From: Hyphomicrobiales bacterium
Lineage (GTDB): Bacteria; Pseudomonadota; Alphaproteobacteria; Rhizobiales; MH13
Reading direction: 5' to 3'
Assembly: GCA_046290645.1 (NCBI GenBank)
Contig: JBKAGZ010000004.1
Coordinates: 196,327-260,326, forward strand
DNA length: 64,000 nt
In this document: positions 36,551 through 57,677 of the stretch, piece by piece
How positions within the stretch are numbered: the first letter of the stretch is position 1
How the letters are laid out: each line of letters opens with the position of its first letter
Position numbers and translations under genes: made by a program
The notes under the pieces: model-generated
Database searches by the model: none
The model's input: only the letters and a program-made list of their open reading frames with translations
What the model was told of the DNA's origin: nothing

Positions 36551-37522
36551 CTAATTGCAGGGCATGATGTCCGCATAGTTGGACGGATCAACGATCGTTG
36601 TGTTGGCGACTGTCTGTAAAGGCAGCGCTTCACCAGTTGTGACCGAGTTGATCAAGGCGCGGGCCGCAGCATCACCAACGTCAACGCCGGAGATGTACAG
36701 AGCCGCTTTGAAGGCGGTATCGATGCCTGCTTCCCAAGGGCGGCAAGCTTCATACGCACCCAGGCCGACAGCAATGATGTCGTCGGGCGCAAACCCGGCA
36801 TTGGCCAGCGCGTTGTTTGCACCCAACACGCCTTCATCATTGCATGCAAAGACCACCCATTTGTCGACCTGTGGATGGGCGGTGATCACCGGACCGGCGG
36901 CTGCCAGGCTGGTGTCCGCCGTGCCTTCATAGGCAACAGCGTAGATGTTCGCTTCATCGGCACCAGCTGCCAAAACCTGCTCACGCGCAGCATTGGTGCG
37001 GTCGTTGCAAACAGAGAGCGTCTGCACTTCAACGCTCAAAATGCCGTACGTGGCTCCGTCGAGCCAACCGGAAGCGGCCAGAAGTTCACCGGCGCGTTCA
37101 CCAACCTTGGTGCCCATGGCCGTGCCATCAAACCCGGCAAACGGAACAGGATTTCCATCACCATCCTCCAGCGGATCATCTGTCGCGATGACGGGGATGC
37201 CCGCTTCAGCGGCGGCCGCCGCGATTGCCGGGCCGAGCGCCTGATCTGGAGCGGTAATGGCGATGGCGTCCGCGCCACCTGCAATGGCATCAGAAATTGC
37301 GCTGATCGCAAGGTTGGCATCAAGCTCGACATTGATTGTGCGGGCGGTGAAGCCCAGCTCCTCAGCAGCTGCGACAAAGCCGTTGGCCTGATCGATGAAA
37401 TATTGCTGGGTGCCGCTCTTATAGATGGCGACAATCTCATCAGCGTTGGCAGCAACCGTTCCAGCAGACATGATAAGCGCTGCGGTTGTGGCCAGGGAAA
37501 GTGAAAGGCGTGTCGATCTCAT
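36551..37522 (-). CDS. sugar ABC transporter substrate-binding protein (RbsB-like, PBP type I)
   Basis: ATG 37522 is preceded by GGGAGG at 5-nt spacing. Signal peptide MRSTRLSLSLATTAALIMSAGTVAANA. Confidence 0.9.
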   Translation of the reverse strand: MRSTRLSLSLATTAALIMSAGTVAANADEIVAIYKSGTQQYFIDQANGFVAAAEELGFTARTINVELDANLAISAISDAIAGGADAIAITAPDQALGPAIAAAAAEAGIPVIATDDPLEDGDGNPVPFAGFDGTAMGTKVGERAGELLAASGWLDGATYGILSVEVQTLSVCNDRTNAAREQVLAAGADEANIYAVAYEGTADTSLAAAGPVITAHPQVDKWVVFACNDEGVLGANNALANAGFAPDDIIAVGLGAYEACRPWEAGIDTAFKAALYISGVDVGDAAARALINSVTTGEALPLQTVANTTIVDPSNYADIMPCN

Positions 37523-37566
37523 TGTTTCCTCCCGGGTATGGACCTTAGACATAAATGTTATTATCC

Positions 37567-37581
37567 GTTTATCTTATAAAG
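37567..37581. promoter_or_regulatory. GntR-type operator GTTTAT-CTT-ATAAAg
   Basis: Located in the divergent region between the SBP operon (start 37522, -) and the SDR gene (37610, +). A 14-nt core identical to this site occurs upstream of the GntR gene at 40436-40450. Confidence 0.65.
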
Positions 37582-37609: not shown

Positions 37610-38389
37610 ATGCAACGACTTCAAGGCAAAACAGCCATTGTGACAGGTGGAGGCCAAGGCATAGGGGAGGCGATTGCCCGCCGTTTTGCACAAGAGGGTG
37701 CCAAGACAGTCGTCGCTGAACGCAACGCTGAGATAGGCGCGGCGACCGCGCAAAAACTGGCTGATGAAACTGGAAGTCAGGTACTGTTTGTGCACACCGA
37801 CGTTGCCGATGAGCCAAGTGTTGCCGCCATGTATCAGGCAACAAAAGCCGCTTTCGGGTCAGCTGATATTCTGGTCAATAACGCTGGTATCGCTGTGTTC
37901 AAAGAGCCTCTAGACTGCACGCGCGAAGATTGGTTGCGCTGCATGTCTGTCGATCTGGACGGCGTATGGACCTGCTGTCGAACTGTTTTGCCAGATATGC
38001 TGGAAAAGCATGACGGAGCGATCATCAACATCATTTCCAATCATGCCTTCTCAGTGATCAAATCCACCTTTCCCTACCCGGTTGCCAAGCACGCTTTGCT
38101 TGGCCTCACGCGCTCACTGGGGTTGGAGTACGCTGACAAAGGTGTCGCAGTGAACGCCATTTCACCGGGCTACACAGAAACACCTCTGGTGCGGGCCTAT
38201 TTTGAAACGTTTGACGACCCTGCTGCTGAGCGAGCTCGAGTTGAGGCACAACAGCCAGTTGGCCGCCTCTGTCAGCCCGACGAGATAGCAGCCGTCGCAG
38301 CGATGCTGGCTTCAGATGAAGCACGCTTCATGGTTGGCGAAAACATTGTGATCGACGGCGGCGTCACAATCCGCATGTATGAGGATTAG
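37610..38389 (+). CDS. SDR family oxidoreductase
   Basis: TGGGQGIGEAIA cofactor motif, NNAG, and catalytic YPVAK (YxxxK). Confidence 0.9.
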   Translation: MQRLQGKTAIVTGGGQGIGEAIARRFAQEGAKTVVAERNAEIGAATAQKLADETGSQVLFVHTDVADEPSVAAMYQATKAAFGSADILVNNAGIAVFKEPLDCTREDWLRCMSVDLDGVWTCCRTVLPDMLEKHDGAIINIISNHAFSVIKSTFPYPVAKHALLGLTRSLGLEYADKGVAVNAISPGYTETPLVRAYFETFDDPAAERARVEAQQPVGRLCQPDEIAAVAAMLASDEARFMVGENIVIDGGVTIRMYED

Positions 38390-39582: not shown

Positions 39583-40419
39583 TTATCCGCTCTGACGTCT
39601 CTGAACAGCACCGTCAGATCCAGGGGATTGATCAAGCAATTGAAACCCTTGCTTGGCATCGTCAATCGCACATTGAATGAGGGTGCGCATGGCCGCTTCT
39701 GTTGCCTCTGGATCACGCGCTATGAAAGCCTGAAAAACACGCTCATGGAGGGCGTGGCTTTCATCCATACCAATCATTGTGCTGGTGTAGCCTTTTGCCG
39801 TCATCTGCAGGTCCAGCAGCAAACCGAGCGCCGCCTCAATGACCGAGAACAGCTGCTCCAGCAGTTCCGATTGCACCGCTCCAATCAGTGCGCGGTGGAA
39901 CTCAAGGTCCGTTGTGATGAAGGCCTCGCGGCGCGCCTCATGTGACCCAGTCGCATTGTCATACACATACTGCTTGGCCTGCCATGCGGCCTTGACTCGC
40001 TCAATGTGCTCCTGGTGCGCGCTTTGCGCTGCGAGATAGGCAATGCCTGGTTCCATGACCAAGCGCAGTTTTAAAAGATCGCGCAACAGTGACTCAGTAT
40101 CACCTGCTTTGATCCGCCATTCCATAACGTCGGGGTCAAGCAGTCGCCATTTTGACCGCGGCTGGATACGCGTACCATCGGACGTTTTGGAGCGTATCAT
40201 GCCCTTGGCACCAAGAATGCGGAAGGACTCACGAATGACGGACCGACTGACCCCCAGTTGATCCACCAGATCGGCTTCGCGTGTAACCGCTTCGCCTTCA
40301 CCCCATTCGCCTGAGGCAATGCGCGTACCCAAATGCTCAACGGCGCTGCCTAAGATGCCGCGTAGCTCAATCGCGCCGTCCAGCAATGAATTTGGCCCGA
40401 TTCCGCCACGATTGATCAC
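39583..40419 (-). CDS. GntR family transcriptional regulator (FadR/FCD subfamily)
   Basis: HTH EADLVDQLGVSRSVIRESFRILGAKGMI plus a helical FCD-type C-terminus. GTG start preceded by GGAGG at 7-nt spacing. Confidence 0.9.
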   Translation of the reverse strand: MINRGGIGPNSLLDGAIELRGILGSAVEHLGTRIASGEWGEGEAVTREADLVDQLGVSRSVIRESFRILGAKGMIRSKTSDGTRIQPRSKWRLLDPDVMEWRIKAGDTESLLRDLLKLRLVMEPGIAYLAAQSAHQEHIERVKAAWQAKQYVYDNATGSHEARREAFITTDLEFHRALIGAVQSELLEQLFSVIEAALGLLLDLQMTAKGYTSTMIGMDESHALHERVFQAFIARDPEATEAAMRTLIQCAIDDAKQGFQLLDQSPGSDGAVQRRQSG

Positions 40420-40435
40420 GAAGATTCCTCCATTT

Positions 40436-40450
40436 GTTTATAAGATAAAC
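40436..40450. promoter_or_regulatory. GntR-type operator, perfect inverted repeat GTTTAT-AAG-ATAAAC
   Basis: 17 nt upstream of the GntR start codon. Reverse complement of the 37567-37581 site. Confidence 0.65.
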
Positions 40451-40964
40451 CGACTTATAGGGAGGGGCAAGCCTCAATTGTCTCCACATGAGCCGTTGCA
40501 GTCGGGCTGGCCATCTCCCCCAGAACCACCACGAGAAGTTTCCATCGACAGACGGTCAGACCATTGTCTGGCGTTTGATTGGACAAAGCGCAAGAAAGGA
40601 TAGGGGGGCCTTAAATCTGTATCCCGTTTAACTGCCGAAACAGCAAACCCCAAAAATCGAAGGATACCGCAGCAGAGAAACGATTGGGATTCAATCGATC
40701 AGAAGGTCTGCTCTCAGCCCAATTCAAAGCTTGGTTGTGGATTGCCACTTGGCCGCTTGGCCCACATCACGGACCTCAGATCCATCCGCCCGCGCGTTTT
40801 CAACCAATGGCGGCTGTCAGGAAGGTAGGCTGCAGGCTTGCCGCTGCTCTTGAACTGCGATTTTGGGCCCATTGCGTTGAAAAAGTCGTTTGATCTGACG
40901 TTCTGATACCCGTTACCAATCTCTTTCGAAGCCCGATCTGGGGTTCGCGTCTCGCAACGCACTT

Positions 40965-43362: not shown

Positions 43363-44337
43363 CTAGCTGTGCCGAATATGGTCTAGCCAATGTTCGACAA
43401 TGCGGATTTGATCCGACGGCGCACCCGAACCCGGGTGTATGCCTGTCGAAAGACAGGCCGATGGCGATAGGCCGAACCGGTCACGAAACAGCCGGTTGAA
43501 ATGCTTGGGGTCGGTGAAGTGCCATCGCCGAGCGACCGCTGAGACTTGACCGCGCGACGGCTTGGCTCCCGCAAGTTCAAAAAAGCATCGGTCTAAACGG
43601 CGGTTGCGGATGTGGCGCGCGACGCCGCCTTCTTTCTCAAAGTGCCGGTAGAGCGTTGCACGCGACACGTCGAAAACGGCCGCGAGCGTATCGACACCAA
43701 GGCTGGGATCATGAAGGTTCGTGGCAATGTAATCCTGCACAAGAAGCGTCAAGGGAAGGTCGCGGTCCTCGCTCGGCGCTTCGCCAGGTCTCGGCCCGAG
43801 CATGAGCTGGCGCACCAGCCCAACAAAGGTCTGCGCAATCAGCGCGGCGTCCTGTGCGGTTCTGTCGGTGTGTGTGTTCAGCAGTTCGGCATGCGCAGCG
43901 GCCAGCAACCGGCCCTTGGGCGAGTCCATCTCAACCGAGGTGAAGGCGGGCTCCTCGCCGCGTTGGTAGCCGAGCAGCGCGTGTGGAATGCAAATGCCGC
44001 GGCTAAGGCTGCGCGCCTTCATTGACACATAACGCTGGGACATATCGATGACGTGCAAGCGCGAGGGCGAAACATCGAACCCGATATCACCGACTTCGGC
44101 CTGCCCGCCGCCCTCATAGAAGCGCTCGAACAGCAGATAGTCGTGGCATACATCCTTACGGGTGGTCGGGTCGTGAATGAGCATCTGGGCAGGCGTGGCG
44201 ACCTTGGCCATAAAGAGACCGTCTGTCTCCTCAATCTCAATGTCGACGCCTGCGCGCTCAGCCGGCTCGCGCGGGTAGACCTCGTAGATAGGCGAGGCAA
44301 GCTCTCGCCACTGTTCCAGATCAAGGTGCATGATCAC
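43363..44337 (-). CDS. AraC family transcriptional regulator
   Basis: C-terminal double HTH (VDTLAAVFDVSRATLYRHF ... WHFTDPKHFNRLFRDRFGLSPS). Confidence 0.9.
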   Translation of the reverse strand: MIMHLDLEQWRELASPIYEVYPREPAERAGVDIEIEETDGLFMAKVATPAQMLIHDPTTRKDVCHDYLLFERFYEGGGQAEVGDIGFDVSPSRLHVIDMSQRYVSMKARSLSRGICIPHALLGYQRGEEPAFTSVEMDSPKGRLLAAAHAELLNTHTDRTAQDAALIAQTFVGLVRQLMLGPRPGEAPSEDRDLPLTLLVQDYIATNLHDPSLGVDTLAAVFDVSRATLYRHFEKEGGVARHIRNRRLDRCFFELAGAKPSRGQVSAVARRWHFTDPKHFNRLFRDRFGLSPSACLSTGIHPGSGAPSDQIRIVEHWLDHIRHS

Positions 44338-44462
44338 ATCGTGTTGTGCATTCCAAACGACCTACCCGCGCACTGATCACAAGTGTGGCAACAACAGCGC
44401 AGGCGAGCGGACCGAAACGGCCCGCCAGCCCGGTTTACTAGCAGCTACCAAGCCGACTGTCG

Positions 44463-46106
44463 TTAGGTAAGGTTGCAAATGCTCTGCGAGTTGCTGAACC
44501 ATTTACCGTCATTGTAGGAGGCCGCGACCCCTTTGAGCTTTGTCAGATTGGGTCCGAAATAGAGCTCTAGGGCATCTTCCAAGGGCGGCGTATCGGCTGC
44601 AGTGCTGCCAAGGTCAATGTCGGGATAGTTGTAGTAACACCCCTGCAACCCAGTCCCGGATGGCACGCCGCCGGTCGCCACATAGACGCCTTCATAGATG
44701 TCCCTCATCCAAGTCAGGTGTGCATCCTCGAGCGCCTCATCATCATAGCCAGGGCCGACATTGGTGGTCCAATAGCTCTGATACTGAAGCTTGGCGATCG
44801 AGTCGCGCTGATAGATGGCCGTGGCGTCATAAGGGATTTGATTGATTTGGCCGCCATAGGAGTCAAACTGGATAAGCGACTGGCTCATATCGACAAAACC
44901 CGGCTGACTGGGAATGGAAACCGGCGTCGTCAATCCCTGATAGGCTCGTTCCAACATGGTCGTGGTGAACGCGGTCATATGGTAGGCTGATTTGTACTTG
45001 CCATACCGGTTCGGGCCAGAGCCGTTAAGTGTCTGCATGCCTTCCAGGAAGGTGTAGATATGGTCGGGCCCATAGCCCACTGATGTCGATACGCCCTCAT
45101 ACTGGACGCCCAGCGCGTGGGTGCTGGCAATGTAGGGATGGCCAACCAGCTTGCAGTCCCGGTCCGACAATGGCGCGATCTCCTGCGCCAGTTTTCGATT
45201 GGCGGCAAGACGCTCACTGCGCTCAGCTCTGTAGTCCGGCAGGCTTTGCCCAGAGGATTCATAATAGGTATCGATGTCAGCCAAGCTGATCGATTTGGCG
45301 TCCATGTGGCTGCCGTGAAGAATGCCAAAAATGTTGTTGGTTATGCCGCTTTGGTCGCAATACTGCCCAAAGAAGAACGTGTTGACGATGCCGTTGAACT
45401 GATCCTGAGTCAGCGCAATGTTGCCGTCCGCATCAAACCAATCCCAGCTGTAGGTCGTCGTGAAAACGTAGGACGGCGCATCTGGCAGTGTCTCAGTGGC
45501 AAAATAGTAGCGGGTGATGATCCCAAACTGGCCGCCGCCACCGCCTCTTACAGCCCAGAACAAATCGCTATGAACATCTTTTGTGCAAGTGATCAGTTGC
45601 GGCGTACCATTTTGGACGACGACGATGTCGACGGCGGATAGATAGTCGATCGACAGGCCCATCAGCCGGGAAAGAACGCCATAGCCTCCGCCGGTGATAT
45701 GGCCGCCAAGTCCGACCGAATAGCACGAACCGGCCGGAATGGTTTTCTGGTAGAGATTGTTGAGAAGCCGGTACATGTCCCAATTGCCCATCCCCACATC
45801 CAGATAGACCATGGCAACACCGCCAAGGGTGGTCTCACCATAGCCTTTCAGAGCGGTCACATCGATGATCGCCTGCGTGTTTTCGTTGTAGACAAAGCCT
45901 TCATAGCAATGGCGGCCACAGGTGACCTGCACGGCCGACCCGCTGATGCCGGATGCCTGAATGGCGATGACCGCGTCATAAACGCCTTGCGCACTTGTCG
46001 GTCGATAAACCTGGAGTGCTGAACTGTCGGCAAACCATCGTTTGTTAAAACCCTGACGGTCACTCAATGAGGGAGGTAATAGCGCGTCCATAATCCTGTC
46101 CTTCAT
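44463..46106 (-). CDS. FAD-linked oxidase, berberine-bridge-enzyme-like (VAO/PCMH fold), probably bicovalently flavinylated
   Basis: FAD_binding_4-type region with TCGRHCYEG (His site) and PAGSCYSVGLGGHITGGGYG (Cys site), plus a BBE-type C-terminus (CYYNYPDIDLG). No signal peptide. Confidence 0.85.
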   Translation of the reverse strand: MKDRIMDALLPPSLSDRQGFNKRWFADSSALQVYRPTSAQGVYDAVIAIQASGISGSAVQVTCGRHCYEGFVYNENTQAIIDVTALKGYGETTLGGVAMVYLDVGMGNWDMYRLLNNLYQKTIPAGSCYSVGLGGHITGGGYGVLSRLMGLSIDYLSAVDIVVVQNGTPQLITCTKDVHSDLFWAVRGGGGGQFGIITRYYFATETLPDAPSYVFTTTYSWDWFDADGNIALTQDQFNGIVNTFFFGQYCDQSGITNNIFGILHGSHMDAKSISLADIDTYYESSGQSLPDYRAERSERLAANRKLAQEIAPLSDRDCKLVGHPYIASTHALGVQYEGVSTSVGYGPDHIYTFLEGMQTLNGSGPNRYGKYKSAYHMTAFTTTMLERAYQGLTTPVSIPSQPGFVDMSQSLIQFDSYGGQINQIPYDATAIYQRDSIAKLQYQSYWTTNVGPGYDDEALEDAHLTWMRDIYEGVYVATGGVPSGTGLQGCYYNYPDIDLGSTAADTPPLEDALELYFGPNLTKLKGVAASYNDGKWFSNSQSICNLT

Positions 46107-46122
46107 TCAAAAGCCCCAAGCC

Positions 46123-46158
46123 ATATATTACATAATAAAGTAATATAATACGTAATAA
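46123..46158. promoter_or_regulatory. tandem AT-rich 16-nt elements (20-bp phasing), candidate shared operator
   Basis: ATATATTACATAATAA (46123-46138) and ATATAATACGTAATAA (46143-46158), 17 nt upstream of the oxidase start. The first is the exact reverse complement of 55625-55640. Confidence 0.5.
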
Positions 46159-46480
46159 GGTATCATCAGAATCGCGCCTTGCCTAGCCATTGGGGCAAAG
46201 TATGAAGTCTTTCGACGAGGGAAATCAGGAGACGATCAGATCTTGTCTAGCAAGTTGTTGAAAGACTGCATGAAAAAGCTTCGTTTCAAGCGCGTAGATC
46301 GCTCTTGCGAAATAAAACATTGCTGATAGTGCTAAGCATACCGTGCAGACACGCCAGATGATGGCCATCTTTGATCTGTGATTGACTGTCTAACAGAACC
46401 GATTCGCCACGCGCCATGATTGCAACCGATGTGGCAAAGCCCATAGTCTTGAACGCAGACTTGGCGCGCGTTCGATCAAC

Positions 46481-47704
46481 TCAATTGTCGCTGAGCCAAC
46501 CCAAATACCCTTTCACACCACCATTGCGGGCGCGGTGAAGGTCATCAGGTTCCTGCGAAAAGTCTTGCCCGCGCTTCAGCACATCATAGACGGCCTGGCC
46601 AACAACCTCGCCCTGCCCTGGAACAAGGTTGCAAGGGTCAAGTTGGAAATAGCCAAGCTCAACTTCGTGATCGCGCACGATTATGGCCGGCTTTTGCTGG
46701 CTTAAGACACGTGCAAACGTCGCAGCGCTCGCTCCGGCTTGCCGGGCATCCACTTCCACCTGCAGCCGGTTCAGCGGATTGCCTGTCGGATCGGCGATGA
46801 CGATGGGGTTGATGCCAGGAAGTTGCGCCAGACGCGCGCGCCACGTTTCCAACACCCGGTCTTCGGCCTCGCGCATGGCCTCATGATCACGTGCCATCCA
46901 CGCCTCCATGGCGGCGATCGCGCCGGCGATGCTTTCTTTGCCGATTTTCATGCCTCGGCCCAGATTGATGTTTTGAAGATAGGCGGCACGAACAGCGGCG
47001 CGCTTCCCAGCTATGATCCCACCGGTTGGACCACCGAGAAATTTGTGCGCCGAATACACAGCAAGATCGGCCCCCGCGGCAATGAAGCCGCGCAGATCAT
47101 ACTCCGATGCCGCATCGACAATCACCGGCACGCCCTTGGACTTGCAGATCGATACAAAGCGATCGAACGGGATCTGCCCATAATGGACCACATGGTGAGA
47201 CACCACATACAGCGCGGCAGCGGTTTGATCGCCCAAAGCGCCTTCAAGCTGATGGTCCATGGCGAGGGTCGACTGGCCGATCTGTCGCGTTCTCGCCCCG
47301 GTCAGCGCAATGGCCGTATCGATCGGAGCGCCATAGCCGCAAAGATGCCCGGCCTGGACAACCACCTCAGAACGCGGTCCGGGCTGCGCGGGCAAAGCCT
47401 CGGCCTTGGCAGGGTCCAGCCCGCTCATGCATCCAGCAACCGCAAGGCTAATGCCGGCGCTTGCCGATGCCGTCATGCAACCGGCTTCGGCCCCGGTTAG
47501 ACGGGCGATGACGCCGCTGGCGTGGGCTTGCAACTCGTGCATGTTCACAAAACGCGCCATGGCTTGGCTGGTCGCATCGCGAACTTTTTGCGAGGTGATG
47601 GATGCACCCAGGCCCGTCATCGTGCCGGAAACATTGATGAGGGGCGTGTAGCCGTGCTGGTCGTACCAGTGCCAGTTGTCGTTGAGATCGGTCGACTGAG
47701 TCAT
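46481..47704 (-). CDS. SelA-like PLP-dependent enzyme (DgaE / glucosaminate-type ammonia-lyase family)
   Basis: PLP-lysine block YSAHKFLGGPTGGIIAGK, as in the SelA/DgaE family. ATG 47704 (AAGG upstream) is preferred; ATG 47737 is the alternative. Confidence 0.8.
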   Translation of the reverse strand: MTQSTDLNDNWHWYDQHGYTPLINVSGTMTGLGASITSQKVRDATSQAMARFVNMHELQAHASGVIARLTGAEAGCMTASASAGISLAVAGCMSGLDPAKAEALPAQPGPRSEVVVQAGHLCGYGAPIDTAIALTGARTRQIGQSTLAMDHQLEGALGDQTAAALYVVSHHVVHYGQIPFDRFVSICKSKGVPVIVDAASEYDLRGFIAAGADLAVYSAHKFLGGPTGGIIAGKRAAVRAAYLQNINLGRGMKIGKESIAGAIAAMEAWMARDHEAMREAEDRVLETWRARLAQLPGINPIVIADPTGNPLNRLQVEVDARQAGASAATFARVLSQQKPAIIVRDHEVELGYFQLDPCNLVPGQGEVVGQAVYDVLKRGQDFSQEPDDLHRARNGGVKGYLGWLSDN

Positions 47705-47777
47705 CGTTTTACCTTGCGTTATGAGAAGCGTTTCCATAATAGTGGAATATGAGAATCGAACCGAGGTTTATCACGCG

Positions 47778-48548
47778 ATGAACGCACCACCACGCAAACG
47801 CACCAGCGGGATAGATCGCGCTTTGCAAGTCATGGACCTTTTGACCCAGCACCAACGGCCGATGACGGCCTATGAGCTTGCAAAGCTGGCCGGCGCGCCG
47901 GTTTCGACGATCTATCGGTTGATCGACGAACTGGTCGAGCGCGACATGCTTTCGCGCCTTGATGGCACGCAGATTTGGCTCGGCCCACGCCTGATGCGGT
48001 ATGGCTTGGTCTACCGCTCCAACATGGACATGTTTGTCGAAGCCAAGCGTGAAATGAATGCGCTGAGCAAAAGAACCGGCGAAACGGTGCAGGTTTGCGC
48101 GCGCGATGACAACATGATGGTCGTGGTTGCGATGGTTGATGGCGGCGGGCATTTGCGCGTCACATCGGATGTCGGCACGCGCGTGCCGCTTAACTGGACG
48201 GCGTCTGGTCGCCTGTTGCTCGGCCACCTTTCCGACGATGAACGCCTGAAAGCCTTCCAAGAATGTGCCGAGCCGTCGGAAACCGGTCGCGCCGAAACAA
48301 ATCCGCAACGACTGGCCGAACAGTCGCGGGCTGACTTTGAGCAGGGGCTGGCGCTGCAAATGAGCAACTCCGAATACTCCGTCGCTTGCCTTGCTGCGCC
48401 GATCCGCGATGTGTCCGGCGCGTGCGCCCTGACCATGTCGGTCGTGCTTTCCGAGCAGCGCGCGCAGGAACGCCTGCCGGAACTGACCAAAGAGGTGCAA
48501 CGAGCCGCTTTGTTGGTTGAGCGTGCGCTGGGTCGGGAAGCCGCCTAA
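47778..48548 (+). CDS. IclR family transcriptional regulator
   Basis: ATG 47778. HTH IDRALQVMDLL...MTAYELAKLAGAPVSTIYRLIDEL plus an IclR effector domain. Confidence 0.9.
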   Translation: MNAPPRKRTSGIDRALQVMDLLTQHQRPMTAYELAKLAGAPVSTIYRLIDELVERDMLSRLDGTQIWLGPRLMRYGLVYRSNMDMFVEAKREMNALSKRTGETVQVCARDDNMMVVVAMVDGGGHLRVTSDVGTRVPLNWTASGRLLLGHLSDDERLKAFQECAEPSETGRAETNPQRLAEQSRADFEQGLALQMSNSEYSVACLAAPIRDVSGACALTMSVVLSEQRAQERLPELTKEVQRAALLVERALGREAA

Positions 48549-48561
48549 CGGTTTCATGGCG

Positions 48562-49083
48562 TCAATCGAGCCGCGTCTCGAAGACGGCCTCGATCTCGAC
48601 GGTGATCTGGTTGGGTAGCGATCCGACGCCGAAAGCGCTGCGCGCATGCACGCCGTCCTCTGCGCCAAAGACCTCCGTTAGCAGTTCCGACGCACCGTCA
48701 ATCACATAGGGATGATTGGCAAATTCCGGGACGGCGTTCACCATGCCCAGCAGCTTCACCACACCATTGATCTTGTCCAAACTGCCCACATGGGCGCGCA
48801 ATGCGGACAGGATGTTGATGGCCACAAGGCGGGCATGGCCACGCGCGTCTTCATCGCTAACGTCCAAACCAACTTTGCCGCATTTCAACGTGCCGTCGGG
48901 CAAAACAGGACCCTGGCCGGAAACAAAGACCAGCGCTCCAACCTGCCGCACATTCTTGAAGGCACCTATCGGCTTGGGCGCCAAGTCAGGAAGGCTCAGT
49001 CCGATTGCCCTTAGGCGACCTTCCGGTCCAAGTGGCTGGCTGGTTTGCGCTTTGGATGGATGATCGGACTCAGACAGAGTCAT
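48562..49083 (-). CDS. RidA/YjgF family reactive-intermediate (enamine/imine) deaminase
   Basis: VFVSGQGP ... ARSAFGVGSLPNQITVEIEAVFE. Overlaps the upstream ATPase gene by 14 nt. Confidence 0.85.
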   Translation of the reverse strand: MTLSESDHPSKAQTSQPLGPEGRLRAIGLSLPDLAPKPIGAFKNVRQVGALVFVSGQGPVLPDGTLKCGKVGLDVSDEDARGHARLVAINILSALRAHVGSLDKINGVVKLLGMVNAVPEFANHPYVIDGASELLTEVFGAEDGVHARSAFGVGSLPNQITVEIEAVFETRLD

Positions 49084-50035
49084 TAAGAGCCTCGATTCGT
49101 TTGCAATAGCTGGTATGAGAAGGCGAGAGCATCACCGGATCGGGCACGCCCGAACCACATGGCTCCTGGGCGATTGGGCAACGCGTTCTGAACACGCACC
49201 CCGATGGTGGATTGAGCGGACTTGGAATATCGCCCCGCAAAATCGTACGGGTTTGCGCAGCCTTGGGGTCGGGCACTGGAATGGCCGAAAGCAAGGCGCG
49301 CGTGTAAGGGTGCGAGGCGCGCTGATAAAGGTCGCCAGAGGCCCCCTTTTCAACAATCTTGCCCAAATACATGACGATCGTCTGATCGCACAGATACTCA
49401 ACAACTGACAGATCATGCGCGATGAACAGCATCGTCAGGTTGCGCCGTTCTCGCAGTTCCAGCAGCAAGTTCAACACTTGGGCCTGAATGGAAACGTCCA
49501 ACGCCGAAACGCTTTCATCAGCAACGATGAACTCCGGCTCCAAGGCCAGAGCCCGGGCGATGCCGATACGCTGGCGCTGGCCGCCGGAAAACTCGTGCGC
49601 GAAGCGCTCCATATGGTCGGCCTTAAGGCCAACTTCCTCAAGAAGCGCTGCCACCCTTTCGCTTTGCTCGCTGGCTGAGCCAATCCCATGGGCCACCAGC
49701 CCCTCGGCGATGATCGCTTTCACGCGAAGCCGTGGGTTCAGCGAGGACACAGGGTCCTGAAAGATAATCTGCATGCGCTTGCGCATGGCGCGCAACGCGG
49801 CGTGGGACAGGGTGTTGATGTCATGGCCATCAAACAATGTTTGGCCGCTGGTGGGCTCAATCAGTCGCAAGAGCGTGCGCCCAAGCGTCGTTTTGCCCGA
49901 TCCACTCTCGCCAACAAGGCCGGTAATCGAGCCTCTTTGCATATCAAAACTAACGTCGCTGACGGCCTGAACCAGCCCATCGCCGGTCTTGAACGTCTTG
50001 GACAGATTGCGGATTTGGACCAGGGGTTCAGGCAT
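49070..50035 (-). CDS. ABC transporter ATP-binding protein (DppF/OppF-like)
   Basis: ATG 50035 ([15 protein letters not shown]), GESGSGKTT, FSGGQRQRI. 8-nt overlap with the upstream ATPase gene. Confidence 0.9.
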   Translation of the reverse strand: MPEPLVQIRNLSKTFKTGDGLVQAVSDVSFDMQRGSITGLVGESGSGKTTLGRTLLRLIEPTSGQTLFDGHDINTLSHAALRAMRKRMQIIFQDPVSSLNPRLRVKAIIAEGLVAHGIGSASEQSERVAALLEEVGLKADHMERFAHEFSGGQRQRIGIARALALEPEFIVADESVSALDVSIQAQVLNLLLELRERRNLTMLFIAHDLSVVEYLCDQTIVMYLGKIVEKGASGDLYQRASHPYTRALLSAIPVPDPKAAQTRTILRGDIPSPLNPPSGCVFRTRCPIAQEPCGSGVPDPVMLSPSHTSYCKRIEALNDSV

Positions 50036-51026
50036 CGGCCAACGCCCCTTCGACCTTGATGCACGCGACCTGGTGGGCCGGCCGAAGAGGCATGAGGTCG
50101 ACCGGGTTCCGACAGGCGTCGTCGGCACGCACACAGCGCGGGGCAAACGCGCATCCTGGCGGCATGGCACTCAACGCTGGAACAGTCCCAGGAATGGGCA
50201 CAAGCCTTGTTTCCGGATCGCGGCCAGGCCTGGGTATCGAGGCCAGCAAACCTTGCGTGTACGGATGAAGTGGCAAGGCAAACAGATCATCGACGCCGGC
50301 ATCTTCGACCACGGCACCGGCATACATCACCGCCACGTCATCGGCCATTTCGGCGACCACGCCCATATCGTGTGTGATGAACAGGATGGACATGCCCAAC
50401 TCGCTCTGCAAACGGCGCATCAGGTCCAAAATCTGCGCCTGAATCGTCACATCCAGTGCAGTCGTGGGTTCATCGGCGATCAACAAAGAAGGATTGCACA
50501 CCATCGCAAGGGCGATCATCACCCGTTGGCGCATGCCACCGGAAAGCTCGTGCGGGTAGCTGTCTATGCGCTGGCCAGCTGCTGGGATCTCCACCAGATC
50601 GAGCATGTCTAGAACGCGTTTACGACGGGCTGCTGGATCTAGCTCGGTGTGCAGAAGGAGCATTTCGCCGATCTGATCGCCGATCGTGAAAAGCGGGTTC
50701 AGGGACGACATCGGCTCCTGGAAAATCATCGCGATGTCCGAGCCGCGCATGCCGCGCACCTCAGCCTGGGAGGCCTTTGTCAGGTCAACCGCGCTGCCGT
50801 CGCGGTGATGATAAGTGATCGAGCCGCCAGCCACCGATCCATTGCTGGGAAGAAGGCCCATAATCGCCAGCGAGGTCACCGACTTACCCGAACCGGATTC
50901 TCCAACGAGCGCCAGTGTCTTGCCGGCGTGCAGTTGGAAGCTTACATCGCGCAAGGCACGCACCTGTCCGCGCGGCATCTGAAAGGCGACGCTCAAGCCT
51001 GCCACGTCAAGGATCGGCGCGCTCAT
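50028..51026 (-). CDS. ABC transporter ATP-binding protein (DppD/OppD-like)
   Basis: [30 protein letters not shown]. The start overlaps the amidohydrolase stop (ATGA). Confidence 0.9.
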
Positions 51027-52153
51027 GCCAGCCCCTCGCCGTCTCGGCGCGCCGCTGGTTCCAATGACGCACCGATGACACTCATGCGCGGTTCGAACAC
51101 TTTGCTCAGTGTGAGGACATTGCCCTGACTGTCGCGGGCGCCAAGGCTGGCATCGGTGAAATCAAAGATCGTAAAATCGGCCTTTGTCCCAACCGTCAGC
51201 CCGTCGGCACCGCCCAGCCCTAGGATGGACCGTGGACGATTGGTGATAGCTTGGACGCATTCCTCAAAAGACAGGCCAACGGCCGCCAGTTTGGAAACTG
51301 TTGTTGCCAGATCGTGCACCGGTCCATCGATATTGCGCAGATGCAGGTCGGTGGAGATGGAAAATGGCACCAATCCATCACCAATCGCTTGGCGCGCCGT
51401 CTCAAAATCAAAGGACGCCACGCCATGACCAATATCCATATGCACGCCACTGTCGGCCAGGTTGCGCGCCTGCGCATAGAGCGCAGCCGTATCGGTGATG
51501 GATCCAGCTTTTTTACCATTAAAACAGTGCGTTATGATGTCGCCAGGTGCAAGGATATCAAACACCTCATCGATCAGCGGTGGCGGCTCTCCAACATGCA
51601 CCATCAACGGTAGGCCTGCGATTTCAGCCACACGTTTGGCGATCTTGGCAGGCGTGATGCCCCAACTGCCAACGATCACGCCGCTGGCACGCACCTTGAC
51701 CCCGCAAATCACATCACGATTGGCGTCGATCACCGCCAGCGTGCGGTCGATATCGATCGAGCGCAGATCGATCAGTTCCGGCACCCTGTTGCAGGCAACC
51801 AGGCCGATAGAACCGATATTGAGAAACGCACGGATCGTTTCCGTGCTCGGCTCAATCACATACTCGCGCAAACCGTGAAAACTTGCTTCGCCCGCCGAGC
51901 CGGCATCGGCCATCGCCGTGACGCCCGTCGCTCGCCCCGCATCGCCTGGACGCACGGAAATGTCGGTGCCGCCATGCCACACATGTACATGCAAATCACA
52001 CCAACCCGGCGACAGGTAAGCGTCGCCGCAATCGACCGTGTGAGAATCTGGGGCCGGCGTATCAGAGACCAGCCCAGCATCATCCACGTGGATGACTGTC
52101 TTGTCGGCGCCGTCAAAACCGATGGCACGAAAATTGGTCAACGTGAGCGCCAT
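51023..52153 (-). CDS. amidohydrolase/deacetylase family metallohydrolase
   Basis: Metal-binding HxH block SPGWCDLHVHVWHGG plus later His/Asp blocks (MVHVGE, ITHCFNG, ISTDLH). The gene is embedded between the permease and ATPase genes. Confidence 0.85.
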   Translation of the reverse strand: MALTLTNFRAIGFDGADKTVIHVDDAGLVSDTPAPDSHTVDCGDAYLSPGWCDLHVHVWHGGTDISVRPGDAGRATGVTAMADAGSAGEASFHGLREYVIEPSTETIRAFLNIGSIGLVACNRVPELIDLRSIDIDRTLAVIDANRDVICGVKVRASGVIVGSWGITPAKIAKRVAEIAGLPLMVHVGEPPPLIDEVFDILAPGDIITHCFNGKKAGSITDTAALYAQARNLADSGVHMDIGHGVASFDFETARQAIGDGLVPFSISTDLHLRNIDGPVHDLATTVSKLAAVGLSFEECVQAITNRPRSILGLGGADGLTVGTKADFTIFDFTDASLGARDSQGNVLTLSKVFEPRMSVIGASLEPAARRDGEGLA

Positions 52154-53011
52154 CTAGACCTCCTTGGCCAATCTGGGATCAAGCGCATCACGCAAGCCAT
52201 CGCCGACCAATTGTAAGGAGAGAACGGAGATCGAGATCGCGATTCCTGGGAAGAAAATCAGGTAAGAGGCCTGATCGATATATTGCCGCCCCTCATTGAT
52301 CATCGTGCCCCAGGTCGGCGTGGACGGGTCTACGCCGACGCCGAGGAAAGACAGACCGGCTTCGGCCAGCATGGCATAGGCAAAGATGAACGTGCCCTGC
52401 ACGATGATCGGCGACATGATGTTACGCAGCACGTGGGTGGTCATGATCCGAGACGTCGAGGTGCCCAGCGCCCGGGCCGCTTCCACATAGGGCAGCTCGC
52501 GGATCACCAGCGTTGAGGCGCGCACGATGCGTGCGATGCGCGGGGCGTAAACAATGGACAAGGCAAGGATGACATTGACCATCGATCCACCCAGGATCGA
52601 TACCAAAGCGATGGCCAGCAGAATATCGGGAAAGGCCATCATCGCATCGATCAACCGCGACAGCAGTCCGTCCAACTGGCGAAAGAACCCGGCAAGCAGG
52701 CCGATAAAGATGCCAACGATGGACGACAGGATCGCCACGCCTAGCCCGATGGCAAGCGACACTTGGCCGGCAAAAAGCAGCCGCGAGGCGACGTCGCGAC
52801 CGAAGGCGTCCGCCCCCAACCAGAACGCGGAACCGGGTGGCGTCAACCGCTGACGAACGGACATCTGCGCCGGATCAGCCGGCGCGATAAGGGCAGCAAG
52901 AGCACACAGAGCCAGGATGATGAGAAAAATGATCAGCGCCACAAGGACAGAACGGCGCGAGAACAGGAGTTCCAGAAATTTCGGTTCATCGGCAAACGCG
53001 GAAACAGCCAT
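52154..53011 (-). CDS. ABC permease (DppC/OppC-like)
   Basis: Polytopic membrane protein. Its stop abuts the amidohydrolase start codon. Confidence 0.9.
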   Translation of the reverse strand: MAVSAFADEPKFLELLFSRRSVLVALIIFLIILALCALAALIAPADPAQMSVRQRLTPPGSAFWLGADAFGRDVASRLLFAGQVSLAIGLGVAILSSIVGIFIGLLAGFFRQLDGLLSRLIDAMMAFPDILLAIALVSILGGSMVNVILALSIVYAPRIARIVRASTLVIRELPYVEAARALGTSTSRIMTTHVLRNIMSPIIVQGTFIFAYAMLAEAGLSFLGVGVDPSTPTWGTMINEGRQYIDQASYLIFFPGIAISISVLSLQLVGDGLRDALDPRLAKEV

Positions 53012-53018
53012 CAGACCC

Positions 53019-53960
53019 TCAATATTTCACGCGTTTGTCGACGACCAGATAGAGCAGATCGACGACGAGATTGATAACCACATAAAGCGTGGCAACAACG
53101 ATCAACGTGCCTTGGATAACTGGGTAGTCGCGTCGCAGCACCGCCGACACTACCAGATTGCCCATGCCAGGAATGTTGAACACACGCTCTGTCACCACCG
53201 CGCCAGACACCAGCAACGCGAAGGTCAGACCGACAACAGTCAGGATGGGAATGGCCGCGTTCTTGAGGGCATGGCGCAGCACAACCCTCCGCTCGCCCAT
53301 ACCCTTGGAACGGGCGGTGCGAATGTAATCCTCACCCAAAATGTCGAGCATGGACGCACGCGTAAAACGCAAGATGATGGCCGAGTTGGCGATACCCAGA
53401 ACGATCGATGGCAGGATGAGAAAGCCCATGCGATCGAAAAAATCCGCGTCCGGCCCGCCATATCCGGACGCCGGGAACCAGCCGAGCTCTGTGGCCAGAT
53501 AGCGCTGGAACATCAAACCGGTCCAAAAACTGGGAACGGAGGCCGCCAGCATCGCCGCTGAGATGGCTGTTTGATCAAGCCACGATCCGCGCCGATAGGC
53601 AGCATAAATGCCGATGGGCGTGGCAATGACCAGCGCGATCAGCAGGGAAAAAAGGGCTAGAAAGATGGTCGGCTCGGCCCGGCCCGCGAGAACCGTCGTC
53701 ACCGGTTGATTGAAGAAGATCGAAGTCCCCAGATCACCGCGCAGCGCATTCGCCGCGAAGGTGAGATACTGCACGATGATGGGACGGTCGAGACCAAGGC
53801 GTTCGCGCAACTGCGCTGCGTCTTCGGGCGTCGCATCCGGACCCAGCATCAGCGCCGCAGGGTCCCCAGGCGCCAACCGCACGATCACAAAGGCGATTGT
53901 CAGAACCATCAGGATCACGACAATCATGCCAAAGGATCGCCTAAGAAGGTATCGGGTCAT
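53019..53960 (-). CDS. ABC permease (DppB/OppB-like)
   Basis: N-terminus MTRYLLRRSFGMIVVILMVLTIAFVIVRLAPGDP is typical of DppB. Confidence 0.9.
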   Translation of the reverse strand: MTRYLLRRSFGMIVVILMVLTIAFVIVRLAPGDPAALMLGPDATPEDAAQLRERLGLDRPIIVQYLTFAANALRGDLGTSIFFNQPVTTVLAGRAEPTIFLALFSLLIALVIATPIGIYAAYRRGSWLDQTAISAAMLAASVPSFWTGLMFQRYLATELGWFPASGYGGPDADFFDRMGFLILPSIVLGIANSAIILRFTRASMLDILGEDYIRTARSKGMGERRVVLRHALKNAAIPILTVVGLTFALLVSGAVVTERVFNIPGMGNLVVSAVLRRDYPVIQGTLIVVATLYVVINLVVDLLYLVVDKRVKY

Positions 53961-54041
53961 AACGCCTTTACTTCTCGCAACGGTTGGGGGCGGCGGGGGT
54001 GCAGTCTAGGGGGAGACGGCGCGGGATGCACACATTGGATC

Positions 54042-54074
54042 CATGGGATCGACCCGCATAGGACCGATCCCATG
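54042..54074 (-). other. intercistronic hairpin after SBP gene (10-bp perfect stem)
   Basis: CATGGGATCG-N13-CGATCCCATG, 14 nt after the SBP stop. No U-run. Confidence 0.4.
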
Positions 54075-54087
54075 TCGCTTTTCGGCG

Positions 54088-55611
54088 TCAGTTCGCGCTG
54101 GCGTTCCAGAAGAACGGCCAGGGTGTTGGGGTAACGCCAGTCAATCCTTGGCGATGACCCATCAGCGCATTGAAACCGCCAATCTTGATAAAGCCAACAT
54201 CTTCAAAAACGCGACGTTGCAGATCAGCAAACAGAGCTTGACGTTCTGCCGGATCTGTCTCGGTCGTAAAGGCAGCCAAGATGGCATCCTTTTCCTCATC
54301 CGACCATCCAAGACGAGACGTCGCCGCATAGAGGCTGGTGAGCGCCGGTTCTGGGAGGAACGGCGAGTGGGTGATGTAGATATCCCACAGAGCCGGATCA
54401 TTGCGGCGCTGGCCGAGTGTGGCCCAGTCCACCACGTCCATGTGAACGGAAAATCCAGCCTGCTCCAGGGCAACGGCGGCAACTTCAGCCATCTTGAAGT
54501 GGAATTCATACTGGCGCGACGTCAGGATGCGTAGCGGCGTGCCGTCATACCCAGCTTCGCTCAGCAGATCGCCAGCGCGTTGCTGATCGTTCTGATTGTA
54601 AAGCTCAACGCCTTCATCCGTGCGCCATGACCAGCCATCAGGGTACATCGGGCCGTCAACCACGAAAAAGTTATCATCGCCAAAGGCTGCAAACAGCATA
54701 TCATCAATCGGCAGTGCAGCCTGCAAAGCCTGGCGCACCGGCAGATCGGTCAACAGGCCAGCCTTGTGGTTGATCGCGAAGATCGGCCAACCAAACGGCC
54801 GCAGCAATAGAGGGTCGGCAACATCGCTGGCCTCTATGCGCGCTAAAGATTCTGCCGGCAATCCATCGGCAAAATCGAACTGGCCAGAAAGCAAACCCTC
54901 AACGCGTGTGTTGGCATCCGGCACCGGCACGAAACGAATTTCATCAGCAATCTGCGACCGCATGCCAGCGGCACCGCTGGACGGCTCCTGGCGCGAAACA
55001 TAGCCGTCAAACCGGCTAAGCTGTAAATATTGGTCGGGCACATGATCGACGATTTGATACGGTCCTGTCCCGACAATCTCGCCCATCGTCTCCGCCAGCG
55101 TCTCTTCGGGATAGATCACAGCCGCCGAGTTAGAAAACGCAAGCAGGGAAAGCAGCGGCGAGTACGCTTCGTTCATCTGAATTTCGATCGAATAATCCGA
55201 CGTTGCCGTGACCGCAGCGACTTGCTCCGCCACCCCGCGACCACGCGTGGCGACCTCCAGCCAGCGATTGAGCGACGCCACCACATCAGCGGAGTCCATC
55301 GATGAGCCATCATGGAATGTGATGCCCTGGCGCAGATCGATCGCGTAGGTAAGCCCATCATCACTGATCATCGGCAGGTCGACGGCAAGCAGTGGAGCCA
55401 CCGCCCAACTTTCATCGAAGGTGTAGAGCGTTTCGACAAAATGCTGGGTGACGATGCTGACAACATCCTTTGTCGACATCATCGGATCAAGCGTTTCAGG
55501 TTCGCCGACAATGGCAACATTCAAGGTTTGCGCTGACGCTGGCGTTGCCAGCATTGCACCGGCCAAAAGGGCCGCGCAGAATGCACTCTTTTTCAGAAAC
55601 TGGACTGGCAT
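54088..55611 (-). CDS. ABC transporter substrate-binding protein, family 5 (peptide/nickel/oligosaccharide type)
   Basis: 507 aa with signal peptide FCAALLAGAMLATPASAQ. GGGAGG Shine-Dalgarno upstream. Confidence 0.9.
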   Translation of the reverse strand: MPVQFLKKSAFCAALLAGAMLATPASAQTLNVAIVGEPETLDPMMSTKDVVSIVTQHFVETLYTFDESWAVAPLLAVDLPMISDDGLTYAIDLRQGITFHDGSSMDSADVVASLNRWLEVATRGRGVAEQVAAVTATSDYSIEIQMNEAYSPLLSLLAFSNSAAVIYPEETLAETMGEIVGTGPYQIVDHVPDQYLQLSRFDGYVSRQEPSSGAAGMRSQIADEIRFVPVPDANTRVEGLLSGQFDFADGLPAESLARIEASDVADPLLLRPFGWPIFAINHKAGLLTDLPVRQALQAALPIDDMLFAAFGDDNFFVVDGPMYPDGWSWRTDEGVELYNQNDQQRAGDLLSEAGYDGTPLRILTSRQYEFHFKMAEVAAVALEQAGFSVHMDVVDWATLGQRRNDPALWDIYITHSPFLPEPALTSLYAATSRLGWSDEEKDAILAAFTTETDPAERQALFADLQRRVFEDVGFIKIGGFNALMGHRQGLTGVTPTPWPFFWNASAN

Positions 55612-55624
55612 GGTAATACCTCCC

Positions 55625-55660
55625 TTATTATGTAATATATATCATTGTTAAGGAGTATAC
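55625..55660. promoter_or_regulatory. tandem AT-rich 16-nt elements (20-bp phasing), candidate shared operator
   Basis: TTATTATGTAATATAT (55625-55640) and TTGTTAAGGAGTATAC (55645-55660, 11/16 match), starting 14 nt upstream of the SBP start. The first is the exact reverse complement of 46123-46138. Confidence 0.5.
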
Positions 55661-56215
55661 GCTTTTTCGTTCCAATCGGTCAAGACAGTGGATTGACGTT
55701 ACGATCGACGGCGATGAAAACAGGTTGGAAAGCGAAAGTTGGCACGACGAAAAGTGCAGAAAACCCAGCGCCCTGCGAAAAGGGCGTTCGACATCCAACA
55801 CTGGATGTGGGCGTTTAAAGGTTGGTCTTGGGCTGATGTAAGAACGGCACTGCGGGCCGAACTGGCTGGTCAATGTGTGATTGAATTGACAGCGGAAAGG
55901 CTCAAGCCCCAGCGCACCAACCGCGGATCATATCGGCCATAAAGGCACAGGTCAGCGAACGCCTGTGGCTGCCAATTCGCCACTCAGGGCAATTGGTCTG
56001 CGTCGCCATCCATCAAAACGCTGGCTTGATAGCTAGCTGTTTGAATAGCGCGTTGCGGGTCGGTTGTGCGTTGACGAGAACCTAGGAGGATTGTGATGCC
56101 AAACGGCTTTCGGCAACCCCACAACTGAGGGCCGAACCAAAGCGAAAGCAAACGGCTGCGGCAACCAGACCATGTTCTTCGACGGCCGACGACATGCGCC
56201 AATTGTTGCCCGCCA

Positions 56216-56932
56216 TTAAGGCGCCATTTCGTCAATGATTTCTTCGATCGCTCGATCGTCATTTTCTTCCGCCCGCGCGATCGCTGGTGTCGCGCCGATC
56301 CAACTGCCGTCCTCAACGCATGTAAGCATCAAATGCGCAAGGTCCCCATGCCGCGTGCGGATCAGATTTTTTGGAATTGCATCTGGCTGTACCACATAGT
56401 CGTCGGTGCATGCACCGTCCATCAGCCATCCTGGCCTCACGGCTGTCCAGTTGAGATCGGTGCCGCGCAGTTGGCTTTCCATTTCCGCCATCTGCGCAAA
56501 CACACGTGCCAGCGCTGGTAACGCCGTTAGCTTAAACGCCAGTGGACCTCGGTTCAGGGTTTCGACAAAACTGGCCGAGATCACAACCAAGCGTTTGACG
56601 CCGACCTCGTTCATCGCCTGACAAATCCGCGCCGTCCCTTGGGTGTAAAGCGGTGGCGGGTCCAACAAAGTTGGAACATCATTGGCAACGCCCAATGCCG
56701 ATAGGACAGCGGTTGAACCATCGATGATGTCGCCGAGCGGATCGCTGAGAACATCAGCATTGTGCCAGCTTAGTCCATCTCTGGCTTCAAGTGCCTCGGC
56801 ACCTTCGTGAACTATACCCCTCACCTGAAATCCGCGCGCGAGCGATTGGGCAACAAGATGTTCGCCGGTCGCGCCATCCGCGCCAAAAATGGTAACAGTT
56901 CTGGTGTTGCTCTTCGTCACATTGAACTCCAT
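56216..56932 (-). CDS. NAD(P)H-binding (NmrA/atypical SDR-like) oxidoreductase
   Basis: N-terminal VTIFGADGATGEHLV glycine-rich motif; 238 aa. Confidence 0.75.
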   Translation of the reverse strand: MEFNVTKSNTRTVTIFGADGATGEHLVAQSLARGFQVRGIVHEGAEALEARDGLSWHNADVLSDPLGDIIDGSTAVLSALGVANDVPTLLDPPPLYTQGTARICQAMNEVGVKRLVVISASFVETLNRGPLAFKLTALPALARVFAQMAEMESQLRGTDLNWTAVRPGWLMDGACTDDYVVQPDAIPKNLIRTRHGDLAHLMLTCVEDGSWIGATPAIARAEENDDRAIEEIIDEMAP

Positions 56933-56990
56933 TTGAAATAATCTGCTTGTCGGCTCCGCCGAACCGGCTCTCAGGGGTTTAGCCCCTAAG

Positions 56991-57677
56991 CTAGCCTTGC
57001 TCAGGATTGGCTGTTTTCAAGACCGTTGCGAGCATGTCGCCCTCGCCATAGACAAGCAGGGTGTCGCCGCTTTCCAGCGGCCGATCCAAAGACGGGACGC
57101 CTTCCCAACTGCCATCCTCGCGCTCAATACCCAGAACGATGACCTGGCTGTCGCGGAGCCAAAGGTCGCGGAGCGACTGGCCAATAAAAGGCGAACTGGC
57201 GTCGAGCTGAAACTCGGCAACACGCCAATTGTCGCGCAGGTGAAGAAGCGCGGCGTAATCCCGCAAATCCAGTGCCGGTGTGGTCTTGAGGATGCGCTCG
57301 ATGAACGGGCGCGTCAGGCGCGCCAAGGACCCGGAGCGAGCTATGAAGATAATGGCAGCGCTGCCCAAGAGGAACGTCGCAAGCTTCGCCTCGGTCGAAA
57401 AACTGTCGCCAGCAAAGGAGAGCATGAGCGTGGTAATGGCCGTCACGATGCCAGCCGACCCCGCGCGTATGAGCATCGCAATGATGCGGCGGCGCGCCGG
57501 CCCATTGACGACGTTCTCAGCCTCCCCGGTCGTGAACCCCGCTCCAGAGAACGCTGAAAGCGCCTGAAATTTTGCAACGTCTTCCGAAACGCCAGTCATC
57601 GTCAGCGCGATCGCGCCAACCCGTACAAACAGCAGCGAGAAAGCGATGACCAAAAGAAGTGATGCGATAGCAAGCAT
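56991..57677 (-). CDS. membrane protein with C-terminal TrkA-C (RCK_C) domain
   Basis: ATG 57677 (MLAIASLLLVIAFSLLF). Two to three TM segments with SAFSGAGFTTGE, then a TrkA-C-like domain (VAEFQLDASSPFIGQSLRDL...GDTLLVYGE). Confidence 0.7.
   Translation of the reverse strand: MLAIASLLLVIAFSLLFVRVGAIALTMTGVSEDVAKFQALSAFSGAGFTTGEAENVVNGPARRRIIAMLIRAGSAGIVTAITTLMLSFAGDSFSTEAKLATFLLGSAAIIFIARSGSLARLTRPFIERILKTTPALDLRDYAALLHLRDNWRVAEFQLDASSPFIGQSLRDLWLRDSQVIVLGIEREDGSWEGVPSLDRPLESGDTLLVYGEGDMLATVLKTANPEQG

Follow-up and report, generated by a model that had tools for sequence, protein, structure and literature searches.

The AT-rich repeats of the window (the whole stretch of DNA that was analysed, 64,000 nucleotides in length) are, judging from sequence comparison, very probably the operators of an IclR-family regulator whose gene (47778-48548, plus strand) lies inside the cluster. 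On this reading, what had been a nameless AT-rich repeat becomes the basis of a regulon map that can be tested, comprising three promoters with five operator sites and a single candidate repressor, and it would functionally tie a BBE-type oxidase to a cluster of ABC transporter, amidohydrolase, RidA and DgaE-like genes. Membership of one regulon is supported for the BBE gene, the DgaE/SelA-like gene and the whole ABC operon by comparison with contigs that carry BBE homologues of 60-90% identity (L001-L009) and with genome loci that carry orthologues of the IclR gene (L010-L019). The latter include Roseibium marinum, Oceaniradius stylonematis, Jiella pacifica, a Pseudorhodobacter MAG and Enterobacteriaceae RIT691, and the compared loci are phylogenetically non-independent.

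The BBE/FAD-linked oxidase (44463-46091, minus strand) was recognized by the Pfam families BBE and FAD_binding_4, and the DgaE/SelA-like PLP-dependent ammonia-lyase (46481-47704, minus) by Pfam SelA and by NCBIfam TIGR01437, with 296 bits, which is below the cut-off of that model. The IclR-family regulator has 256 residues and matches PF09339 (HTH_IclR, 46 bits) and PF01614 (IclR_C, 97 bits); a 319-aa minus-strand reading frame at 47709-48668 is a shadow of this plus-strand gene, as the gene calls in orthologous contigs show. The ABC/amidohydrolase operon (48562-55611, minus), annotated with Pfam and NCBIfam, begins with the gene of an SBP_bac_5 binding protein (SBP; 54088-55611, minus) and further encodes two permeases, a COG3964-type amidohydrolase/deacetylase (51023-52153, minus), two ATPases and a RidA/YjgF protein (48562-49083, minus). 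Its gene order is kept in L003, L006, L008, L010-L012, L019 and a Salipiger plasmid (L124), and a megablast search of a plasmid collection gave only partial matches to the ABC genes, of ~75%. An AraC-family gene (43363-44337, minus) adjoins the BBE gene. Compared with the product of the gene that follows BBE in the closest relative (L001 4835-5674), the AraC protein is 82% identical over the first 38 residues and then diverges completely, as might result from a frameshift, from a rearrangement or from a difference in assembly.

The first-pass annotation had singled out a 16-nt element, and its copies were confirmed: ATATATTACATAATAA is present exactly at 46123-46138 (plus) and its reverse complement exactly at 55625-55640 (minus), each accompanied 20 bp away by a weaker copy, at 46143-46158 (14 of 16 positions) and at 55645-55660 (11 of 16). 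The accompanying statement that an exact recurrence of this length is very unlikely by chance did not survive, as ~0.95 exact 16-mer pairs are expected by chance in 64 kb, and the coding DNA of the window holds a further two exact pairs of at least 16 nt. With up to three mismatches allowed, four matches to the 16-mer are found in the window against 0.09 expected, a number reached in none of 100 shuffles. The significance of the pair lies in its position, its 20-bp partner and its conservation across species, not in the exact match alone. The position had been given as 14-17 nt upstream of the start codon at both genes, and this stands for the SBP gene (13 nt from the 16-mer to ATG 55611). At the BBE gene the distance is ~32 nt and not 17, the start being most likely ATG 46091 and not 46106, because the homologues have 541-546 residues (541-543 in the closest ones) and a ribosome-binding site, AAGGACAGG, stands ahead of that ATG. 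Codons 1-5 of the BBE reading frame of 547 aa (46092-46106) are probably untranslated. The opposite orientation of the element at the two promoters is likewise real, but it is a by-product of quasi-palindromy, since the 16-mer consists of one arm plus the spacer of a longer inverted repeat and both promoters have the same layout.

The true unit of the predicted operators is a 22-bp quasi-palindrome, ATA-TTnCA-(T/C)TATTA-TGnAA-TAT, which is offset from the 16-mer and has in each of them the arms TTnCA and TGnAA around a 6-bp AT spacer. A weight matrix was built from 21 sites, all taken from orthologous loci outside the window, and scanned over the whole 64-kb window, where only five of 63,979 positions scored at least 13, all five being the predicted operators; the next-best matches are background (11.8 at 26541 and 8.7 at 18787). 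The top match, with 32.9 bits, is the strong BBE operator O2 (46125-46146, minus), which reads ATA-TTACT-TTATTA-TGTAA-TAT in gene sense, is self-complementary at 18 of its 22 positions, holds most of the 16-mer and is conserved in L001-L004 and L006. Its weak partner O1 (46145-46166, minus; ATG-ATACC-TTATTA-CGTAT-TAT), centred 20 bp distal of O2 and overlapping the inferred -10, scores 13.9 and ranks fourth to fifth. The second-best match (28.9) is a single operator at 47729-47750, ATA-TTCCA-CTATTA-TGGAA-ACG, in the 73-bp intergenic region between the divergent IclR and DgaE-like genes; it is conserved in nine loci and is presumed to be the autoregulation site of the IclR gene. The strong operator O2 of the SBP/ABC promoter (55617-55638, minus) comes third with 26.1; in gene sense it reads ATA-TTACA-TAATAA-GGGAG-GTA, its right arm being the Shine-Dalgarno sequence GGGAG, and it holds most of the second 16-mer and is conserved in L006, L010, L011, L012, L017 and L019. 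The weak SBP operator O1 (55637-55658, minus; ATA-CTCCT-TAACAA-TGATA-TAT), 20 bp distal of O2 and largely identical with the 11/16 degenerate copy, is the fifth-best position at 13.4 when strands are pooled, and the sixth-best scan match. The predicted sites are 68-84% A+T in a window of 57% G+C.

The O1 sites score weakly throughout (5.9-21 bits), and their position is nearly constant: of 14 BBE and SBP promoters, drawn from the window and from ten further loci, 13 have their best secondary site exactly at -20, on the promoter-distal side (six of six BBE and seven of eight SBP promoters). No secondary site at -20 was found in any of the nine IclR/DgaE(SelA)-like intergenic regions. These counts, together with the conservation of the tandem pair in other genera, support the original suggestion of tandem binding by one local regulator at a phasing of two helical turns. 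In L012, TAATAAGGGAG occurs twice within 9107-9148, exactly 20 bp apart.

For the ABC operon a sigma-70-type promoter is predicted at 55654-55683 on the minus strand (TTGACC-18-TATACT, 10 of 12 consensus matches), and its -35 TTGAC is kept by the alphaproteobacterial orthologues and by L017, not by L019. SBP O1 overlaps the predicted -10 TATACT and O2 covers approximately +9 to +30, ending 5 nt before the start codon. A consensus promoter scan upstream of the BBE gene gave no match, and the promoter proposed here (46157-46186, minus) was derived from conserved alignment columns only (T31, G33, T51, G52, T54, A55, C56, T58, T59); it would consist of a -35-like CTAGGC (46186..46181), an 18-nt spacer and an extended -10, TG-A-TACCTT (46165..46157), an arrangement which suggests the SBP layout here too, O1 covering the -10 and O2 lying downstream of it. 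The site centres lie 16-65 nt upstream of the start codons, and relative to these predicted promoters the sites would be placed in the classic manner for repression by occlusion. Since SBP O1 doubles as the -10, and the ribosome-binding site forms the right arm of O2, part of the conservation could reflect those functions. The right arm of SBP O2 (55617-55621, minus) is GGGAG in the Alphaproteobacteria, whereas L017 and L019 have a regular TGGAA or TGTAA arm followed by a separate ribosome-binding site. Just downstream of BBE O2, and outside the operator motif, there is a G-rich block, GGCTTGGGGCTTT, at 46110-46122 (minus), conserved in L001, L002 and L004 with the consensus GGCYnTGGGGCT, which may be a leader or transcription-start feature. 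No convincing gene is present in the ~550 bp upstream of the SBP promoter (55661-56215); this stretch does contain a hairpin resembling a terminator (55769-55786) and another promoter-like match (55955..55927).

The operators have been conserved in surroundings that have not. Upstream of the BBE gene the flanking DNA is unalignable, and 21 of the 27 invariant columns fall inside the 40-nt block 46126-46165; in the SBP upstream region the operators are conserved and TTGAC is kept, with diverged flanking DNA. In L002 both arms were altered together (GTATTTC...GAAATAC), so that the inverted repeat was preserved. In L008 and L009 a single control region, which carries a very strong site, separates the BBE gene from the divergently transcribed ABC operon, and this arrangement provides an independent link between the two units. 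This BBE/SBP region of 419 bp (L008 9582-10000, the same in L009 and L014) has in its middle the strongest operator, ATATTACCTTATTATGGAATAA, with 34.4 bits; the SBP-proximal site of L008 is degenerate. The earlier proposal that the two loci form one regulon is supported, as far as sequence can tell, by this shared control region in one lineage and by the presence of the pair upstream of both in other genera.

The motif accompanies IclR orthologues of 47-96% identity, and its combination with the IclR gene ranges over marine Hyphomicrobiales and Rhodobacterales, an enterobacterium and metagenome contigs. The site in the IclR/DgaE-like divergent region is present in nine loci, no site was detectable in L015, an IclR orthologue locus, and L018, an unrelated locus, lacks the motif. 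Over 247 kb of related loci, the matrix gives strong matches at these promoters only. On the Salipiger plasmid, where the IclR and SBP genes are divergently oriented, the motif is kept, and on two metagenome contigs (L040, L043) a TRAP transporter (DctM) takes the place of the ABC system beside the RidA, DgaE-like and IclR genes. In L040 (7565-7606; 7705-8385), where the IclR protein is 47% identical, a strong site is found with a weaker TTCTC-TATAAA-AGAAG 20 bp away. A metagenome search with the exact degenerate 22-mer returned 104 matches, mostly due to chance in AT-rich contigs; among the five in G+C-rich DNA, which alone were informative, three carry a homologous cluster and two, L071 and L099, have unrelated contexts. 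In L071 (359-396, on a contig of 61% G+C), TTACATTATTATGTAA stands in two direct copies, 18 bp from start to start, ahead of genes for a deaminase and a SpoIID-like protein, and the sequence examined there contains no IclR gene; this repeat may be a similar operator for another regulator.

The attribution to the IclR protein follows the distribution of its gene, which is present in every orthologous locus that keeps the motif, including L010-L012, L017 and L019, where the BBE and AraC genes are missing. The DNA-binding region of the protein is nearly invariant among the orthologues, and the third site of the window lies in the gene's own divergent control region. Both the AraC and the IclR protein had been put forward as possible binders by the first-pass annotation; synteny and the site in its own promoter favour IclR, and the AraC gene is absent from most of the loci that carry sites. 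The closest relatives of the IclR protein in the PDB are two repressors, BlcR (3mq0, E = 2e-19) and TtgV (2xrn, E = 3e-13), with IclR and KdgR as further relatives. It scores below all curated NCBIfam equivalog cut-offs, the best models being BhcR, PcaR/PcaU and KdgR, and is therefore not an orthologue of any named regulator.

According to the proposed mechanism, one IclR dimer would bind each 22-bp quasi-palindrome. At the BBE and ABC promoters a strong gene-proximal O2 and a weak distal O1 would be occupied, and since their centres are exactly 20 bp apart, the two operators would be on the same face of the helix. Two dimers could then bind O1 and O2 cooperatively as a tetramer, which the spacing makes fairly probable. 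With O1 over the -10 and O2 at approximately +9 to +30, the bound protein would block RNA polymerase, and repression is, with good probability, the direction of control, given the site positions. A pathway metabolite would release the protein from its operators, and the single operator at 47729-47750 would serve both for autoregulation of the IclR gene and for control of the DgaE-like gene. Repressors of the IclR family generally act by occlusion of RNA polymerase, often with autoregulation, and bind as dimers or tetramers (bioRxiv 10.1101/2023.07.27.550818).

The same protein might work from the same sites as an activator or a dual regulator, as PcaR and some other family members activate from operators that overlap the -35/-10 (bioRxiv 10.1101/2023.07.27.550818), but the strong site of the ABC promoter follows the predicted -10 and reaches down to the start codon, which makes activation unlikely. 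A different protein altogether, the AraC-family regulator encoded at 43363-44337, could be imagined to bind the 20-bp-phased copies as direct repeats, its gene being the neighbour of the BBE gene in the window. AraC-type proteins often use direct repeats ~21 bp apart. The sites found here are, however, inverted repeats located at -12 to +30 and not upstream of the -35, and a third one is in the IclR promoter; moreover, the AraC gene is beside the BBE gene in the window only (in L001 it is recognizable for its first 38 residues) and is missing there in L002, L003, L004, L006 and L008, all of which keep the sites. Binding by the AraC protein is thus very unlikely.

Two further explanations were considered. 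The conserved sequences could act in RNA, as a 5′-leader hairpin or riboswitch that governs translation or stability, since O2 is probably transcribed and the palindrome in the BBE leader can form an 8-bp A-U stem (z = -2.3). The SBP and DgaE-like leaders, on the other hand, fold no better than shuffles (z = +1.4 and +0.7), the arms of SBP O2 are not complementary (8/22), O1 is placed at the likely transcription start or upstream of it, and there is no Rfam match at E <= 1 over 44000-57000; because only one of the three leaders folds, the hairpin was rejected, its probability being slight in the extreme. The base composition of the sites, A+T-rich in a G+C-rich window, and the roughly one exact 16-mer pair per 64 kb that arises by chance might suggest generic AT-rich promoter DNA (-10 or UP-like), the target of a nucleoid-associated silencer, a REP-like repeat or plain coincidence. 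Such origins would not account for position-specific conservation, for the matched change of both arms, for the fixed 20-bp phase or for the fact that the sites go strictly with one regulator gene in more than one class, an enterobacterium among the carriers. REP/BIME and MITE elements are recognized by many extragenic copies per genome, and REPs are usually G+C-rich stem-loops, a description that these sites do not fit. A common REP-like repeat, which the original annotation had named as the finding that would overturn it, was not encountered: only three loci, all at promoters and none between convergent genes, are present in the 64 kb, and no extra copies occur in the 247 kb of related loci. 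Generic or repetitive DNA is accordingly as hard to credit as the RNA element.

The window contains another inverted pair, of 17 nt, TCCGTTTATCTTATAAA and TTTATAAGATAAACCGA, at 37564-37580 and 40437-40453, with 94% complementarity. The first arm lies between the divergent genes of a sugar-type binding protein (36551-37552, minus) and an SDR protein (37610-38389, plus), and the second ~18 nt upstream of the gene of a GntR/FCD regulator (39583-40419, minus), beside a GH88 gene. From its sequence and placement the pair looks like a second, independent local operator.

As for the meaning of the IclR-associated regulon, no description of this DgaE/COG3964/IclR cluster was found in the literature, and the RefSeq/PGAP names of the Salipiger copy are generic and give no specific function. 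A tentative proposal is that the operators define the regulon of an IclR-family sensor controlling an undescribed catabolic route. This route would be made up of a peptide/opine-type ABC (or TRAP) importer, the COG3964 deacylase, the DgaE-like PLP ammonia-lyase and RidA, joined in some lineages by a cytoplasmic BBE-type FAD oxidase. By analogy, one possible substrate, named with low confidence, is an N-acylated amino-sugar acid or a related amino compound; the enzyme set resembles the ong pathway for N-acetyl-glucosaminate (PMC9537276) in its logic, not by homology. An intermediate of the pathway should act as the inducer of the IclR protein, so that the link between the BBE-type oxidase and the cluster offers a handle for finding the substrate and, should the proposal of a catabolic sensor be true, the protein would be a ready-made biosensor for a pathway metabolite.

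The closest frame of reference is the survey of Suvorova and Gelfand (2021; PMC8222616), who distinguished two types of IclR-family motifs, group 1 being GKTYCRY-W3-4-RYGRAMC with a WTTYCRY...RYGRAAW subgroup. They predicted tandem palindromes 18-22 nt from centre to centre in 94 orthologous groups, which they attributed to tetramers on one face of the DNA, and found sites typically 20-80 nt upstream of the start codon (PMC8222616). The sites of the window share with group 1 the palindrome type, the 20-nt tandem and the small local regulon with a transporter, and their centres (16-65 nt) fall mostly inside that range. The pattern WTTYCRY-W4-RYGRAAW has its sole 18/18 match of the window at 47731-47748; BBE O2 scores 15/18, SBP O2 and SBP O1 14/18 each, and BBE O1 12/18. 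The window version combines the W...W edges with a 4-nt W core in an 18-mer and thereby stands outside the four subgroups of the survey, where WTT...AAW is paired with W3. An everted core, TGnAA-TATA-TTnCA, or a three-box site was considered as an alternative unit and rejected, since the single IclR/DgaE-like site has TTnCA-N6-TGnAA only and the inner spacing does not fit the group-2 consensus TGRAACA-N1-2-TGTTYCA: only 4 nt separate the inner boxes (CGTAT-TATA-TTACT and TGATA-TATA-TTACA), against 5-6 nt between the TGRAA and TTYCA cores in the three-box class. A pair of group-1 palindromes with a spacing of 20 nt is a better description of the tandem layout than a three-box site. In the portion of the supplements to PMC8222616 that was accessible, the DNA-binding signature of the regulator does not appear, and COG1921 (SelA) and COG3964 are among the IclR-regulated COGs; a related regulog may therefore already be predicted there.

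Among characterized regulators, TtgV, which acts at the ttgGHI operator of Pseudomonas putida and is released by its effector, is a detectable sequence relative of the IclR protein. It is a distant one, with a different operator sequence and an efflux pump as its target, and the oligomeric state of the window regulator is suggested by the 20-bp phasing only. The operator of BlcR consists of two inverted repeats a few bases apart, on which two dimers bind to form a tetramer. Like the repressor proposed here, BlcR of Agrobacterium tumefaciens represses a small catabolic operon (blcABC) and is relieved by pathway intermediates (PMC3907764), but it serves a gamma-butyrolactone pathway and its operator has a different sequence. 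The ong cluster of Pseudoalteromonas, with OngR, which is dedicated to oxidised chitin sugars, likewise combines a deacetylase, a PLP-dependent deaminase, RidA, a transporter and a local repressor (PMC9537276); its parts are not homologous to those of the window, comprising a MurR/RpiR regulator, a D-aminoacylase-type deacetylase, a different PLP fold and an SSS transporter. Set beside these systems, the predicted operators are a further, uncharacterised example of a switch whose type is already thoroughly documented, and mechanistically nothing new for the IclR family.
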